This document shows, one piece after another, positions 40,882 through 58,512 of a DNA stretch of 64,000 bases. How positions within the stretch are numbered: position 1 is the first letter of the stretch; each line of letters starts with the position of its first letter. The stretch lies in NCBI RefSeq assembly GCF_054482525.1, contig NZ_CM137006.1; one strand, 5' to 3'. The position numbers and the translations under genes were made by a program. A model generated the notes under the pieces. The model was given only the letters and a program-made list of their open reading frames with translations. It did no database searches and was not told the origin of the DNA.

Positions 40882-40951
40882 TGCTGTTGTCTGCTCCTGG
40901 TAAATGCTTTTTCCTGCACTATGACACAATTTTGCGTTGGGTACAGAGCAT

Positions 40952-42277
40952 TTAACGCATACAAAAACGGTCGAAATGGAAGTTTTGGCTGGCAATCCCA
41001 TTTTCATATAACCCTTTGCTGAGCGCTTTGGCAAAACTCTGTGGGCCGCAAAACCAGAAATGGGTGTCACCTTTATTTGCTATTTTATCAGTAAGATAGT
41101 GCACCTGTAGGCGCTCACCTTTATGCGCATCAAGCAGATGCAGTGTGACCCTGGCCTGGGCACAAAGTGAGGTCAGTTTATCAATATACCAGGCATCCTC
41201 GCTTCGGCTGACGCAATACCAGAGATCCACAGGAACAAAGGACGCGCCATGATGTTTACGATACTCAAGCTGGGCGATAAAGGGGGTAATGCCGATGCCT
41301 CCTGCTATCCAGACCTGGTGGGAGCAAGGGAGAGTAAAATCAAACTTTCCCCATGGCCCTTCAACGAAGGCGGACTGGCCGATTTTTATCGAGGATGCCA
41401 GAGTCGAGGTATAATCCCCTAAATGTTTGATCGCAAAGCGCAACGTGTTCTTCTCTTTGGTATATGAAGCGATAGTAAAAGGGTGAGATTCTTTACTGTG
41501 TGCGAACGTTAAGAATGCAAACTGCCCCGGAGAATAGTCGATGGCATGTTCCAGCTCAAGGGTGACTTCGGTAATTTGTCCCGGATGGTTAACAATGTTT
41601 TTAATGGTAGCCTGATGCTTGTTTTTACTACCGTTTAATTTCAGCAGCGAAATGAAAGCCGCAAAGACGCCCGGAATAGTAATTAAAATTAATAAATACG
41701 CAGCAGGAGTTTCCCACCAGTATGATTTAAACAAAGCAGTAAACACATGAAAGGCAATTGCCAGATAAAAGACGGGGAACAAACGGTGAACAAGATGAAA
41801 TAAATGATAGGGAACTCTTTTGCTAAGAGACACGAAAACCATCGCTATCATAATAAACATTGCACATTCACCCGCCAACAGTCCCGCATGAAGCCAATTT
41901 TCTTGTACTGGCGTCAGGTTAATATCAACGATTTTACCAGGGTGAGTAAGCCAGCCAAAGGCGACGAATAACTGGGGTAATTTTTCATCCAGCCAGTGGG
42001 CGAAAGCAAACGCTATGGCGCATATTCCTGCCCACTTATGTAATCGCCATGCTTTATCCAGACCGCCCAGCACTTTGTTAAGCCATGATGAACGCAACGA
42101 TAAACACATCGTCAGCGTCATCAGACACCACGCAAGGGTTCCCGTAAAAAAGAGTATGTTTTGTCGAAGGAACCATATTAGCGCGATTGGCTTTTCACGA
42201 AAAATATCACCGGACGACAAAAAAATAAGGCATGCGACAAAGCAAACCAACGTACCTGTAAGATTAGCTTTTTTCAT
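40952..42277 (-). CDS. NOX/ferric-reductase-like membrane flavocytochrome (6-TM bis-heme domain fused to FAD- and NAD(P)H-binding domains), 441 aa
   Basis: His pairs H-x13-H ([15 protein letters not shown]) and H-x12-H ([14 protein letters not shown]); FAD motif HPFTIAS; NAD motif GGIGITPF; C-terminal CGP motif; start codon uncertain (weak RBS). Confidence 0.7.
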
Positions 42278-42338
42278 TTTTTATTTCATTTTGGCAGCGG
42301 AGCATGGAATAACTCCATGCTCCCGTTAAACAGAGTGA

Positions 42339-42599
42339 TTATTTATAGAAAATCACAGTGGCGTGGATATAATTTTTACCGGAGAAAGAACTGATGTAGT
42401 AATTGCTGGCTTGTAACTCTTCCGCTTTCTCTTTAATTTGGCTTTCAACGCCCGCTGGATTGCTATTGTGTGTGGACATGCTCACTTTTGATAACTGTTC
42501 AAGATTATTGTCCGGTTTGTGTATCTCGGTTGCTGCAAATGCGTGTCCTGTGAGAGTGCAAAGAAATAATGCGGCAAATAAATTTTGCTTAATAGACAT
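42339..42599 (-). CDS. Small secreted DUF1471 (YdgH/BhsA/McbA-family) stress protein, 86 aa
   Basis: AAGGAG RBS; signal peptide MSIKQNLFAALFLCTLTGHAFA; C-terminal ...YISSFSGKNYIHATVIFYK resembles BhsA family ending. Confidence 0.65.
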   Translation of the reverse strand: MSIKQNLFAALFLCTLTGHAFAATEIHKPDNNLEQLSKVSMSTHNSNPAGVESQIKEKAEELQASNYYISSFSGKNYIHATVIFYK

Positions 42600-42615
42600 A
42601 ATAACTCCTTTTATA

Positions 42616-43245
42616 TTAAAGATAATGATTAAATACGTGTGTTATGAGATCAGGGATTTGCGCTAATGCATTTTGCTCGGCGAGTTCGCGTCCCGGTTGG
42701 GTTTTGTCGACGCCTTCCGCACGTAAAATATGTGTATTGGTAATGCCCATTAATTTCAGCGTGGCTTGCAGATAACTTTCCTGATGATCCAGCGCCAGAT
42801 GTGCTTCATCGCAATAGATACCGCCGCGCGTCGAGACAATAAACGTCGGTTTATCCGTCAGTAACCCAACGGCACCAGCGGAAGTAAAACGAAACGTTAA
42901 ACCAGCCTGACAGACCTGATCTATCCAGGTTTTGAGGCCAGATGAAACGCTGTGATTAATCATCGGCGCGCCAATAATGAGCACATCGCACGATGCCAGT
43001 TCATCAATAGCAGCGTGGATATCATTCACCTCCTGCTGAATTTGTGCGTTCTCGCACTCCGCTTTACCGCAAAGCGCCAGAAAGGTTTCTTCACGCAAAT
43101 GGGGTGGGGGCGTCAGGCCAACGTCGCGATGAATAATTGTGGCTTGCGCGAAACGTTGGCAAAGCGCTTCTACCAGCGCCTGGCTTAATTTCCGCGAACT
43201 TGAATGCTTAAGCATTGGACTGCTATCGATATGGAGAATTTTCAT
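42616..43245 (-). CDS. FMN-dependent NADH azoreductase/quinone reductase-like flavoprotein (AzoR/AcpD family), 209 aa
   Basis: Flavodoxin-like fold; MKILHIDSSP..., DVLIIGAPMINHSVSSGLKTWIDQV, FIVSTRGGIY parallel AzoR motifs. Confidence 0.7.
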   Translation of the reverse strand: MKILHIDSSPMLKHSSSRKLSQALVEALCQRFAQATIIHRDVGLTPPPHLREETFLALCGKAECENAQIQQEVNDIHAAIDELASCDVLIIGAPMINHSVSSGLKTWIDQVCQAGLTFRFTSAGAVGLLTDKPTFIVSTRGGIYCDEAHLALDHQESYLQATLKLMGITNTHILRAEGVDKTQPGRELAEQNALAQIPDLITHVFNHYL

Positions 43246-43322
43246 GGGGTTGCTCTCATTTCTGCGATGAGAGAAGTTTAATTGTTGTTGATATGGTGAT
43301 TAAATAGACATAATTGAACTTC

Positions 43323-43344
43323 ATTGTTGTGAAAATAGAACAAT
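43323..43344. promoter_or_regulatory. Candidate LysR-type binding box (ATTGTT-N10-AACAAT) in the divergent promoter region
   Basis: Perfect 6-bp inverted repeat with 10-bp spacer ending 2 bp before the LysR start codon. Confidence 0.3.
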
Positions 43345-43345
43345 C

Positions 43346-44242
43346 ATGATCGACTGGAATGATTACTACTACTTTGCCCTGATTGCCGATGAAGGCAGCT
43401 ACAGCCAGGCGGCGCTGCGTGCGGGTGTGTCGAAATCGGTATTAAGCCGTCGAATGGCAGCGCTGGAAGAGCGCCTCGGCGTGAGGCTTATTCAGCGAAC
43501 TACGCGGCGTCTGGCCCTGACGGCGGCAGGGGAACAGTTTGCTGTCGAGTGTCGGGCGCTGGTGGCTCAGGGGGAACGGGCCAGAGCGGTGGTGATGGCC
43601 GCCCAGGAAAGCCCACAGGGAATGCTGCGCGTCAGCGCGCCGGTATTTATGGCTGAAACATGGTTTGGTGAGTTCGTCAGTGAATTTATCGCCCGCTGGC
43701 CCCTGGCGAAGGTGCAACTGCTGGCAATTAATCGCCCGGTGGATATGGTCGCTGAAGGCATTGATATTGCGCTGGTTACGGCTTCCGGCGCGCTTGCGGA
43801 CTCGACGCTGCATTATAAAAAATTACATACCCAGGCTGATATTTTAGTTGCCAGTTCGCAGTGGCTGGCCCGCCATCCGCAGGTGAAGGCCATTGACGAT
43901 CTTAACCGCGTCGACGGGATCCTCCGCCTGACGAACAATGGCGGGAGCCAGTGGCAGTTAATGAATGGCGACCAGGAGATTACGCTGCATCCCGAGGCGC
44001 GTTTGCAGACAAATAACATTCGCATCATGTTGCAGGCAGTGCTTGGCGGGAATGGCGTGGCGTTATTGCCTCAATTTGCCTGTAAACAGGGGCTTGCCAA
44101 CGGTGAACTGGTGCGCCTGTTCGCACCGTGGAGCGGCATACCCAGACCGTTGTATGCTTTATTTGCCGGGCGAAAGGGGATGCCCGCCATTGCGCGATAT
44201 TTTATGGATGAGTTAACCACGCGGCTTGCCAACGGGGTCTGA
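43346..44242 (+). CDS. LysR-family transcriptional regulator, 298 aa (intact counterpart of the K-12 yqfE pseudogene position)
   Basis: [36 protein letters not shown]; divergent from the azoreductase-like operon. Confidence 0.8.
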
Positions 44243-45212: not shown

Positions 45213-46445
45213 ATGGCAAAGGTATCGCTGGAGAAAGACAAGATTAAGTTTCTGCTGGTAGAAGGCGTGCACCAAAAGGCGCTTGAAAGCCTTCGTGCAG
45301 CGGGTTACACCAACATCGAATTTCACAAAGGCGCGCTGGATGATGAACAATTAAAAGAATCCATCCGCGATGCCCACTTCATCGGCCTGCGATCCCGTAC
45401 CCATCTGACTGAAGACGTGATCAACGCCGCAGAAAAACTGGTCGCTATTGGCTGTTTCTGTATCGGAACAAACCAGGTTGATCTGGATGCGGCGGCAAAA
45501 CGCGGGATCCCGGTATTTAACGCACCGTTCTCAAATACGCGCTCTGTTGCGGAGCTGGTGATTGGCGAACTGCTGCTGCTATTGCGCGGCGTGCCGGAAG
45601 CCAATGCTAAAGCGCACCGTGGCGTGTGGAACAAACTGGCGGCGGGTTCTTTTGAAGCGCGCGGCAAAAAGCTGGGTATCATCGGCTACGGTCATATTGG
45701 TACGCAATTGGGCATTCTGGCTGAATCGCTGGGAATGTATGTTTACTTTTATGATATTGAAAACAAACTGCCGCTGGGCAACGCCACTCAGGTACAGCAT
45801 CTTTCTGACCTGCTGAATATGAGCGATGTGGTGAGTCTGCATGTACCAGAGAATCCGTCCACCAAAAATATGATGGGTGCGAAAGAGATTTCACTAATGA
45901 AGCCCGGCTCGCTGCTGATTAATGCTTCGCGCGGTACTGTGGTGGATATTCCGGCGCTGTGTGACGCGCTGGCGAGCAAACATCTGGCGGGGGCGGCAAT
46001 CGACGTATTTCCGACGGAACCGGCAACCAATAGCGATCCATTTACCTCTCCGCTGTGTGAATTCGACAACGTCCTTCTGACGCCACACATTGGTGGTTCG
46101 ACTCAGGAAGCGCAGGAGAATATCGGCCTGGAAGTTGCGGGTAAATTGATCAAGTATTCTGACAATGGCTCAACGCTCTCTGCGGTGAACTTCCCGGAAG
46201 TCTCGCTGCCACTGCACGGTGGGCGTCGTCTGATGCACATCCACGAAAACCGTCCGGGCGTGCTAACTGCGCTGAACAAAATCTTCGCCGAGCAGGGCGT
46301 CAACATCGCCGCGCAATATCTGCAAACTTCCGCCCAGATGGGTTATGTAGTTATTGATATTGAAGCCGACGAAGACGTTGCCGAAAAAGCGCTGCAGGCA
46401 ATGAAAGCTATTCCGGGTACCATTCGCGCCCGCCTGCTGTACTAA
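45213..46445 (+). CDS. serA: D-3-phosphoglycerate dehydrogenase SerA, 410 aa
   Basis: Full ORF; NAD-binding GIIGYGHIGTQ and C-terminal ACT domain. Confidence 0.95.
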   Translation: MAKVSLEKDKIKFLLVEGVHQKALESLRAAGYTNIEFHKGALDDEQLKESIRDAHFIGLRSRTHLTEDVINAAEKLVAIGCFCIGTNQVDLDAAAKRGIPVFNAPFSNTRSVAELVIGELLLLLRGVPEANAKAHRGVWNKLAAGSFEARGKKLGIIGYGHIGTQLGILAESLGMYVYFYDIENKLPLGNATQVQHLSDLLNMSDVVSLHVPENPSTKNMMGAKEISLMKPGSLLINASRGTVVDIPALCDALASKHLAGAAIDVFPTEPATNSDPFTSPLCEFDNVLLTPHIGGSTQEAQENIGLEVAGKLIKYSDNGSTLSAVNFPEVSLPLHGGRRLMHIHENRPGVLTALNKIFAEQGVNIAAQYLQTSAQMGYVVIDIEADEDVAEKALQAMKAIPGTIRARLLY

Positions 46446-46465
46446 TTCCCCTTCTCTGAAAATCA

Positions 46466-46498
46466 ACGGGCAGGTCACTGACTTGCCCGTTTTTTTTA
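46466..46498 (+). terminator. Rho-independent terminator after serA
   Basis: ACGGGCAGGTCA/TGACTTGCCCGT stem followed by TTTTTTTT. Confidence 0.6.
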
Positions 46499-46624
46499 TC
46501 CCTTCTCCACACCGTTGCCGCGTTGCGCATTCTACTTTGCGAGTCTGCTCCAGAAAATAAATCAAAGTCAGATCAATGCGTTGTGTTTATTTAATGGGGA
46601 TTTACGATGGCAGGACAGCATGGG

Positions 46625-46770
46625 GCTGTAACGGTAAAGCCCTCACCGAAGCGAGGGCTTAAAGGAGAAGGGTTATGATGCGACTTGTCATCATACTGAT
46701 TGTACTGTTACTCATAAGTTTGCCAGCTTATTAACAGTCAGTCACAGGGGAGGAGTAATCCTCCCTTACC
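46625..46770 (-). ncRNA. sibC: SibC antisense sRNA (antitoxin of ibsC); boundaries approximate
   Basis: Inferred from the ibsC ORF on the opposite strand, flanking hairpins and the K-12 fau-serA sib locus; ends not determinable from sequence alone. Confidence 0.4.
46675..46734 (+). CDS. ibsC: Type I toxin IbsC-like hydrophobic peptide, 19 aa
   Basis: AAGGAGAAG RBS; MMRLVIILIVLLLISLPAY closely resembles the Ibs toxin family. Confidence 0.6.
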   Translation: MMRLVIILIVLLLISLPAY

Positions 46771-46834
46771 CTTACTCACTAAATTAGGTTAAAGAATCAA
46801 CGATGTCAATCAGGGCGATGCAGGTGTGTCGCCC

Positions 46835-47383
46835 TCACCACTCCCAGACTTTCGACGGTGTAACCACCGCAGGAAGAGGGATATCCCACTCTTCAACGGG
46901 GAGTTTTTCCACCAACTGACAATCATGCGCATAACCCACCGGTTGCATTTTATAGTGCTGCCAGTTTTGTAAGGTCCGATCATAAAAACCACCGCCCATT
47001 CCCAGGCGCTGGCCGTACTCATCAAAGGCGACCAGCGGTGTGATCAACACGTCTAATCGGGAAAGGGGGAGCACGTCACGCACATCCAGTTTTGGCTCAT
47101 GGATCTTCAACCTGTTCATCACCAGTTCGCTTTGCGGATGGTAATTCAGGAACAGCAAATTACCGGCACTAAAGGGATGCAAAACTGGAAGATATACGCG
47201 CTTACCGGCGCGCCAGAGTTGTTCTATAAGTGGCTGGGTGTCGAGTTCGCCATCAAAAGAGAGGAATACAGCGACCGTATGCGCCATCACCACTGGGGGA
47301 TAAGTCATCATCCGGGTAGCAGCTTGTTGACCCATTTCCTGCTGTTGTTCCGGCGTTAACGCACGACGACGTTGCCGAATCAT
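46835..47383 (-). CDS. fau: 5-formyltetrahydrofolate cyclo-ligase Fau (YgfA), ~182 aa
   Basis: MIRQRRRALTPEQQQEMGQQAATR...; downstream of and co-oriented with ssrS; start codon uncertain. Confidence 0.75.
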   Translation of the reverse strand: MIRQRRRALTPEQQQEMGQQAATRMMTYPPVVMAHTVAVFLSFDGELDTQPLIEQLWRAGKRVYLPVLHPFSAGNLLFLNYHPQSELVMNRLKIHEPKLDVRDVLPLSRLDVLITPLVAFDEYGQRLGMGGGFYDRTLQNWQHYKMQPVGYAHDCQLVEKLPVEEWDIPLPAVVTPSKVWEW

Positions 47384-47455
47384 TTTGCGGATTTCTTGTC
47401 GGGATAATGTCAGTGGGAGTTCTGGTAGTTGCGTCATGGCTGGTGCCAGATAAGA

Positions 47456-47641
47456 AGGGAATCTCCGAGATGCCGCCGCAGGCTGTAACCCTTGAACCCT
47501 TGGTTCAAGGTGAATGTGTCGTCGCAGTTTTAAGGCTTCTCGGACGGACCGAGCATGCTCACCAACCGCGGAGCGCCACATTCTTGTGGTATGAAATATC
47601 GGCTCAGGGGACTGGCCCGCTTGCGAACATCTCAGAGAAAT
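47456..47641 (-). ncRNA. ssrS: 6S RNA
   Basis: Reverse complement matches recalled 6S RNA (5' AUUUCUCUGAGAUGUUCGCAAGCGGGCC ... GGCAUCUCGGAGAUUCCCU 3'). Confidence 0.85.
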
Positions 47642-57501: not shown

Positions 57502-57534
57502 GTCAGATGACAAAGTACAAAAGTGCTCAGACAG

Positions 57535-57638
57535 TCCCCTCGCCCCTTTGGGGAGAGGGTTAGGGTGAGGGGAACAGGCCGGCACTGGCGCGAATATTTA
57601 CCCTCACCCCGGCCCTCTCCCCAAAGGGGCGAGGGGGA
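57535..57638. repeat. ~100-bp imperfect palindromic intergenic repeat
   Basis: CCCCTCGCCCCTTTGGGGAGAGGGTTAGGGTGAGGGG ... CCCTCACCCCGGCCCTCTCCCCAAAGGGGCGAGGGG; arms are reverse complements. Confidence 0.5.
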
Positions 57639-57722
57639 AAAGCGTGCCAACATTGAAGATTGAGCCAGTTTGTTAGCAATCTCAAAGATACGTCAACGAA
57701 TTAATTTTTCCAGGAAAAACAA

Positions 57723-58466
57723 TTGGCTATAGCACTTGTGACCGGTGGCAGTCGCGGCATCGGGCGGGCAACTGCATTACTGTTGGCGCAAGAAGGGTAT
57801 ACGGTGGCGGTTAATTATCAGCAAAACCTCCACGCGGCGCAGGAAGTGGTGAACTTAATCACGCAAGCTGGTGGCAAGGCATTCGTGCTCCAGGCGGATA
57901 TCAGCGACGAAAATCAGGTCGTCGAGATGTTTACCGCAATCGATCTGCACGATGAACCGCTAGCCGCACTGGTCAATAACGCCGGGATCTTGTTTACCCA
58001 GTGCACCGTAGAAAACCTTACCGCAGAGCGAATCAACCGGGTACTTTCCACCAATGTGACGGGACATTTTCTCTGTTGCCGCGAGGCGGTAAAACGCATG
58101 GCGCTGAAAAATGGCGGTAATGGCGGTGCTATCGTCAACGTCTCTTCAGTGGCCTCACGGCTGGGATCTCCGGGGGAATACGTTGATTATGCGGCATCGA
58201 AAGGGGCGATTGATACGTTAACCACAGGGCTGTCGCTGGAAGTCGCTGCGCAAGGAATTCGCGTTAATGGCGTGCGGCCCGGTTTTATCTATACCGGAAT
58301 GCACGCCAGCGGTGGCGAACCTGGACGCGTTGATCGCGTTAAGTCGAACATCCCCATGCAGCGCGGTGGGCAGGCGGAAGAGGTCGCGCAGGCCATCGTC
58401 TGGCTGTTAAGTGATAAAGCCTCTTATGTCACGGGAAGTTTTATCGATTTGGCGGGCGGAAAATAA
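57723..58466 (+). CDS. ygfF: Short-chain dehydrogenase/reductase YgfF, 247 aa
   Basis: TGGSRGIG cofactor motif; TTG start as in ORF track. Confidence 0.8.
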   Translation: MAIALVTGGSRGIGRATALLLAQEGYTVAVNYQQNLHAAQEVVNLITQAGGKAFVLQADISDENQVVEMFTAIDLHDEPLAALVNNAGILFTQCTVENLTAERINRVLSTNVTGHFLCCREAVKRMALKNGGNGGAIVNVSSVASRLGSPGEYVDYAASKGAIDTLTTGLSLEVAAQGIRVNGVRPGFIYTGMHASGGEPGRVDRVKSNIPMQRGGQAEEVAQAIVWLLSDKASYVTGSFIDLAGGK

Positions 58467-58475
58467 GATGGGAAA

Positions 58476-58512
58476 GTTATCTGACCGGATGCAACACAAT
58501 TGGCGTTGCATC
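58476..58512. terminator. Palindromic hairpin between convergent ygfF and bglA (bidirectional terminator or REP-like)
   Basis: CCGGATGCAAC...GTTGCATCCGG inverted repeat. Confidence 0.4.

Follow-up and report, generated by a model that had tools for sequence, protein, structure and literature searches.

In the 64,000-nt stretch of DNA analyzed here (the window), the spacer between serA and fau carries a 19-codon open reading frame (ORF), co-directional with serA, whose sequence, ATGATGCGACTTGTCATCATACTGATTGTACTGTTACTCATAAGTTTGCCAGCTTATTAA, is translated as MMRLVIILIVLLLISLPAY followed by a stop; the opposite strand carries a full-length match to the Sib family of antisense RNAs (Table 1). The 6S RNA gene and zapA lie beyond fau. 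Flanked by rpiA-serA and by fau-ssrS-zapA, the spacer locus is a positional orthologue of the Escherichia coli K-12 ibsC/sibC locus, and this shared gene neighborhood agrees with a first-pass annotation, made from the sequence alone, that had placed an ibsC/sibC module in the spacer. The 19-codon ORF with a strong ribosome-binding site described in that annotation is present, with a Shine-Dalgarno sequence ahead of its ATG. The interval assigned to the module, 46600..46780, contains the ORF, the entire predicted SibC transcript and the predicted ibsC transcription start and leaves out the sibC promoter and the ibsC -35 hexamer.

Table 1. Features of the serA-fau spacer and its surroundings, in window positions
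Feature	Position	Strand	Details and basis
serA	45213..46445	+	
serA intrinsic terminator	46465..46491	+	12-bp stem, then T8; in the K-12-like genome, the T-run is shorter by one base
ibsC promoter (putative)	46581..46608	+	-35 TTGTGT 46581..46586, 16-nt spacer, -10 TACGAT 46603..46608; position relative to the start after Han et al. 2010
ibsC mRNA, ~159 nt (putative)	46615..46773	+	By homology to the K-12 mapping
SibC antitoxin RNA, 141 nt (predicted)	46633..46773	-	+1 = 46773, +141 = 46633; ends after the published K-12 numbering
P7 terminator hairpin of SibC, +114..+137	46637..46660	-	AAGCCCUCGC-UUCG-GUGAGGGCUU, then UACC; predicted fold, outside the Rfam match
TRD2 of SibC, +99..+115	46659..46675	-	Target, ibsC Shine-Dalgarno to first base of ATG; allele-specific base 46661 (+113)
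Rfam SIB_RNA (RF00113) match	46659..46809	-	From the -35 hexamer to SibC +115
Shine-Dalgarno AAGGAG	46662..46667	+	7 nt before the ibsC ATG, within the TRD2 target; read off the sequence
ibsC ORF	46675..46734	+	19 codons and stop, product MMRLVIILIVLLLISLPAY; translation and Pfam match
TRD1 of SibC, +46..+68	46706..46728	-	Target, ibsC codons 11-18; loop +48..+55; allele-specific bases 46722..46725 (+49..+52)
sibC promoter	46781..46809	-	-35 TTGACA 46809..46804, 17-nt spacer, -10 TAATTT 46786..46781 preceded by C; hexamers read off the sequence, promoter predicted
fau	46835..47437	-	
6S RNA (ssrS)	47458..47641	-	Rfam RF00013, 139.8 bits, full length; directly upstream of fau, same strand

Both partners are recognized by family models. 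The peptide matches the Pfam profile Ibs_toxin (PF13956) over positions 1 to 19 of 19 with 39.7 bits (cutoff, 27 bits; E = 4.3e-10), in keeping with the hydrophobic membrane toxin of the Ibs type that had been proposed; it scores approximately 5 bits lower than the K-12 IbsC allele, which reaches 45.0 bits on the same profile. Membership of the Ibs family was defined by a length of 18 to 19 residues, an MM start, a hydrophobic core, a C-terminal aromatic residue and a score above the Pfam gathering cutoff, and the window peptide has all of these properties. An NCBIfam scan of the peptide, padded to 20 amino acids by the preceding codon, gave no match for either the window peptide or the K-12 allele, a result that is uninformative. 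When the entire window was scanned with Rfam, two matches exceeded the gathering threshold, one of them SIB_RNA, with 138.4 bits against a threshold of 56 (E = 1.8e-28; model positions 1 to 147 of 147). This match lies opposite the ORF and overlaps all of it, on the strand where an antisense SibC RNA had been anticipated.

A bare 19-codon ORF carries no statistical weight, and it is the homology that makes this one more than a chance occurrence. ORFs of this length are common by chance, and our promoter and terminator scan gave about as many sites as shuffled sequence; however, the view that the short ORF and the hairpins in the spacer arose by chance alone is refuted by the Rfam and Pfam E values and by conservation, and we consider its probability negligible. 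The 389-nt spacer matches 5,425 of the 5,426 complete E. coli genomes searched, and in 5,421 the match covers 80% or more of the spacer; there are 7,311 matching places in all. Beyond E. coli, species-representative genomes scanned once with the conserved Ibs start motif yielded 68 loci with 72 ORFs, in Citrobacter, Kluyvera, Salmonella, Pseudocitrobacter, Hafnia, other Escherichia species and further genera, so that the conservation of the short ORF in related genomes, on which the first-pass annotation had made its proposal depend, was found. Despite heavy nucleotide variation, 68 of the 72 ORFs are intact at 18 to 19 codons; their products begin with MM, have a hydrophobic core and end in Tyr or Phe. 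The other four (L045, L046, L076 and L084, all from other species) are read through or frameshifted, with 37 to 50 codons, and are likely to be degenerate copies. Ibs genes also occupy the serA-fau spacer in E. albertii, Citrobacter sp. MGH106 and Pseudocitrobacter, and the serA-fau spacer of Escherichia sp. E1V33 encodes the identical peptide.

The exact peptide is already present in RefSeq. WP_100635201.1 is identical to it and occupies the same 60-nt position in strain 144, whose spacer is 100% identical to that of the window. The NCBI pipeline names this protein "type I toxin-antitoxin system Ibs family toxin" and keeps "IbsC" for the K-12, SFPAY and SFGAY alleles; the difference in label reflects a naming threshold and not another locus. 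The module itself is in the literature, and it had rightly been called a known system: the system, its mechanism and the exact peptide were all previously known, and what is added here is only the picture of allele and copy number at the locus. The six-frame ORF list for the window lacks ibsC because the lister has a floor of 20 amino acids, and the original record of O157:H7 strain Sakai annotates neither of its two copies, which confirms that toxin genes below 60 amino acids escape ordinary ORF calling, as had been warned for this gene.

Over the window as a whole, identity to strain 144 is 98.2 to 98.9%, and the window has two extra segments. The first, approximately 3.1 kb between argP and rpiA (40935..44049), encodes a 441-amino-acid ferric-reductase-like membrane flavoprotein, an 86-amino-acid YdgH/BhsA/McbA-like protein, a 209-amino-acid flavodoxin-like flavin mononucleotide (FMN) reductase and an intact 298-amino-acid LysR regulator; it is missing in strain 144, and all that strain 144 and K-12 retain upstream of rpiA is a 231-nt LysR fragment. 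The second, approximately 1 kb between gcvP and bglA (57503..58507), is likewise missing in strain 144 and carries a gene for a 247-amino-acid short-chain dehydrogenase (57723..58466, plus strand).

Positions in SibC follow Han et al. 2010 (PMC2943612), with +N at window position 46774-N; the anchors were the oligonucleotides NPSC+141, NPSC8-29 and NPSC46-68 and the bases G49CU51 and C107UCCUUC113, and all landmarks of that study can be placed on the window without conflict. The same authors described a 159-nt ibsC mRNA starting at the primer-extension +1. Setting this +1 at 46615 puts their A69 on an A (46683) and their U72 on a T (46686), and offsets of one base in either direction fail; a 159-nt transcript from 46615 would end at 46773, facing +1 of SibC. 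The start base of ibsC is A in the window and G in K-12.

The predicted sibC promoter is near consensus: its -35 hexamer is a perfect TTGACA, and its -10 hexamer ends 7 nt ahead of +1. The promoter bases correspond to positions 1 to 29 of the Rfam model and differ from K-12 only at one position in the spacer, 46790. Both promoters have hexamers identical to those of K-12, whose starts were mapped, yet a stricter consensus promoter scan called neither; the Shine-Dalgarno sequence and start codons are also unchanged relative to K-12. In K-12, the sibC promoter is occupied by sigma-S RNA polymerase (PMC4447067). The only promoter-like site returned by the scan (46726..46699, minus strand; CTGGCA, 16 nt, TACAAT) is located within the ORF, on the strand of the Sib RNA, and has a CTGGCA hexamer that arises from the GCCA block of the window allele; it is probably a chance site (1 site, compared to 0.7 expected).

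The predicted minimum free energy of SibC is -53.8 kcal/mol (z = -5.6), and that of the ibsC mRNA fold is -63.8 kcal/mol (z = -6.2). The predicted SibC fold matches the published architecture, with a P1 closing stem, a P2 hairpin, a long stem capped by the 8-nt P5 loop (+48..+55), P6, the single-stranded J1/7 (+107..+113) and the P7 terminator. The Rfam match is offset from the mapped transcript and stops at +115, and it therefore takes in the promoter and leaves out the terminator. Han et al. (PMC2943612) found that two short single-stranded segments set target specificity and redirected SibC to ibsD by mutating G49CU51. A consensus fold built from 66 homologues recovers P1, P2, P6 and P7, with compensatory changes in P2 and P7, and column entropy among these homologues peaks at +49..+53, +86..+92 (the P6 loop), +113..+115 and +32..+37. 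The allele-specific bases of the window sit on two of these four peaks.

In the same alignment of 66 homologues, the P1 and P6 stems are invariant, and the RNA-level signal of 138 bits is far above what a 19-residue peptide can give. Both observations could suggest that the conserved element is the Sib (QUAD) RNA, or a DNA repeat, acting in trans or structurally, with the ORF as a passive passenger. We consider this highly improbable, since the 18- to 19-codon frame, the MM start, the hydrophobic core and the terminal Tyr or Phe are kept in 68 of the 72 homologous ORFs, the frame is kept in all four E. coli haplotypes of the hypervariable block described below, and both the toxicity of K-12 ibsC and its Sib-dependent rescue have been published.

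The ibsC/sibC pair of E. coli K-12 was reportedly described by Fozo et al. in 2008. The window shares with it the serA-fau spacer and the orientation, with 96.9% identity over 389 nt, as well as the promoter hexamers, the Shine-Dalgarno sequence and the start codons; residues 1 to 15 of the peptide and the architecture of SibC also match. There are 12 differences between the spacer and that of a K-12-like genome, 7 of which fall within the 141-nt SibC (+18, +30, +49..+52 and +113), and 5 of these 7 lie inside TRD1 or TRD2. At 46722..46725, the window has GCCA and K-12 has CAGC, which changes codons 16 and 17 from Phe-Ser to Leu-Pro (F16L and S17P) and the C terminus from SFSAY to SLPAY. The "few residues" by which the peptide was said to depart from the K-12 sequence are thus, on alignment, exactly two. 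This GCCA block forms the center of the TRD1 loop, and the change at +113 falls within the unpaired portion of TRD2.

K-12 is, however, a poor yardstick, and it overstates how different the allele is. Other E. coli strains carry TTCCCA (SFPAY) or TTCGGA (SFGAY) at codons 16 and 17, and SFPAY, the commonest E. coli allele (WP_071525914.1), occupies the same locus and is separated from the window ORF by a single nucleotide, TTC to TTG at 46722 (C to G, F16L), which is SibC +52 in the TRD1 loop. Spacer identity to the window is 98.5% for strain ET350 and 97.9% for strain DFL.5, both of the SFPAY group. Haplotypes at the 4-nt block were counted in the 5,426 complete E. coli genomes with 48-nt queries whose 28-mer seeds all span the variable block. 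The window haplotype, GCCA, was found in at least 345 genomes (34 of them exact over the 48-mer), CCCA in 2,791, CAGC in 2,165 and CGGA in 1,844; together, the four account for 7,145 of the 7,311 places. With two tandem copies in the spacer of approximately 1,900 genomes, the sum is larger than the number of genomes. All four haplotypes at this hypervariable block keep the ORF in frame. Gene conversion from an ibs paralogue was considered as the origin of the 4-nt block and rejected, since the TRD1 core, TTGCCAGC, occurs in no paralogue of K-12 or strain 144.

Copy number at the locus varies as well. In O157:H7 strain Sakai and in strain 3384, the spacer is 781 nt long (L015/L016, 255..1035) and holds two tandem Ibs/Sib units, of which copy 1 encodes the SFGAY peptide and copy 2 the peptide of the window, WP_100635201.1. 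Most of the 345 GCCA genomes are O157:H7 or O55:H7, where the haplotype usually sits in the second unit of a tandem pair; strain 144 and ST2747 also carry the allele. The fau-proximal copy 2 of these lineages shares with the window the identical 19-residue peptide and the identical TRD1 core; unlike the window, where the copy stands alone, it lies behind an SFGAY copy, has G rather than A at the TRD2 base equivalent to 46661 and shows silent differences at 46713, 46744 and 46757. The single copy of the window resembles copy 1 on its left and copy 2 on its right, but every single-copy allele shows that pattern, so it is not diagnostic of the collapse of a tandem array by unequal crossover. In O157:H7 TR01, the module is gone by a 182-bp deletion (L014, 2501..2707), which indicates that it is dispensable. 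Elsewhere in the genome of strain 144, the mdtA-yegL spacer (L008, 20282..20998) holds three ibs copies, compared to two in K-12, and the extra one encodes MMKLVIIVVLLVISYPAY. In strain 24A16CRGN010 (L017, 119..577), an IS200/IS605 transposase gene lies just upstream of an Ibs copy with the same SLPAY peptide, where serA-proximal sequence would be expected.

The C-terminal changes raise the question of whether the window copy is still active. According to a review (PMC8309996) that gives a secondary account of the work of Mok et al. in 2010, C-terminal residues matter for the toxicity of K-12 IbsC, and F16L and S17P may therefore affect potency. Position 16 is Phe or Tyr in all 11 other ibs copies of K-12 and strain 144, so that Leu16 is unusual among the E. 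coli paralogues. Taken with the Pfam score, which is below that of K-12, and with the loss of the module in TR01, these points could describe a copy in decay, in which the ORF is intact but toxicity has been weakened or abolished, leaving SibC with little to repress. We judge this to be improbable. SLPAY is the commonest C terminus in the survey of Enterobacterales (22 of the 68 intact ORFs); Leu occupies this position in 23 of the 68 and Pro the next in 40, and, judged from these sequences, Leu16 is not unusual across the Ibs family. At least 345 E. coli genomes, as well as Escherichia sp. E1V33, retain the identical peptide, and the promoter, Shine-Dalgarno sequence and start codons are intact. 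Furthermore, an alanine scan of IbsA from Salmonella (bioRxiv 10.1101/2025.05.26.656083) found that only the basic residue at position 3 and Leu11 were required, with the other substitutions active, and the window peptide keeps both Arg3 and Leu11. The ORFs that are truly degenerate, in contrast, look otherwise, being the 4 of 72 that are read through or frameshifted.

The window module is, very probably, the chromosomal ibsC/sibC type I toxin-antitoxin system of E. coli in a minority allele, with toxicity and repression as expected from the K-12 and Salmonella systems. Its sequence features, family membership, positional orthology, predicted fold and population distribution are established here. 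By analogy with published work on K-12 and Salmonella, from which we infer the transcript ends, the toxicity, the repression and the order of pairing, the plus strand would give rise to an mRNA of approximately 159 nt whose 60-nt ORF encodes a 19-residue, single-helix inner membrane peptide, and the minus strand to a 141-nt SibC perfectly complementary to the ibsC mRNA. The exposed P5 loop of SibC (TRD1) would contact ibsC codons 11 to 18, and the single-stranded J1/7 (TRD2) would contact the Shine-Dalgarno sequence and start codon; pairing would then spread as a duplex, translation would be blocked, the mRNA would be degraded and the toxin would remain silent. Toxicity and Sib-dependent rescue have been published for K-12 ibsC (PMC8309996, PMC2943612), and overproduction of K-12 IbsC depolarizes the membrane, lowers ATP levels and arrests growth (PMC8309996; bioRxiv 10.1101/2025.05.26.656083).

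Since SibC is encoded in cis, the bases responsible for F16L and S17P also alter SibC +49..+52, which leaves the cognate match perfect. Because toxin and antitoxin are read from complementary strands, an allelic change of any kind keeps the cognate pair matched and shifts its relation to noncognate pairs. The five other ibs paralogues of strain 144 show differences from the window-type ibsC at 5 to 8 of the 23 TRD1-target positions and at 7 to 10 TRD2-target positions, mismatches that are consistent with repression by the cognate RNA only.

Natural differences between sibC alleles are concentrated in the two specificity segments, which bears on how duplicated cis-antisense pairs stay orthogonal. 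Four haplotypes occur in a single 4-nt block, while the rest of the spacer differs by 1.5 to 4%; the copies within a tandem array always carry different haplotypes, and the columns that correspond to 46722..46725 are entropy peaks in other enterobacteria too. Han et al. (PMC2943612) proposed that the recognition domains diversify and thereby keep duplicated pairs orthogonal, and the haplotype series, the differences between copies and the preserved frame appear to fit this proposal. We tentatively suggest that the window allele may be one of a set of within-species variants in recognition specificity that arose under recurrent selection for mutually orthogonal SibC/ibsC pairs, in which case the window pair would not cross-react with the others; the balance of probability is against this suggestion. 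TRD2 varies by no more than one base among the four alleles, and rescue across alleles through this segment is therefore quite possible. A multinucleotide mutation hotspot in the hairpin loop is an alternative source of the diversity in the 4-nt block.

The arrangement of the window module is reminiscent of IbsA/SibA in Salmonella Typhimurium (bioRxiv 10.1101/2025.05.26.656083), in which a cis-antisense Sib RNA is likewise paired with an Ibs toxin of 19 residues that has Leu11 and a basic third residue. Unlike the window module, IbsA/SibA lies at the yqiK-rfaE locus and has another sequence; according to the same preprint, IbsA binds the a and b subunits of the Fo sector of ATP synthase, and both this target and a role in virulence have been shown for IbsA only. 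Other type I systems, namely, Ldr/Rdl, ShoB/OhsC, TisB/IstR-1 and Hok/Sok (PMC2887945), also pair a small hydrophobic toxin with an antisense RNA that silences its mRNA, but their toxins and RNAs belong to families other than Ibs and Sib. Furthermore, OhsC and IstR-1 are divergently encoded and have only partial complementarity to their targets, whereas Sib overlaps the entire toxin ORF.
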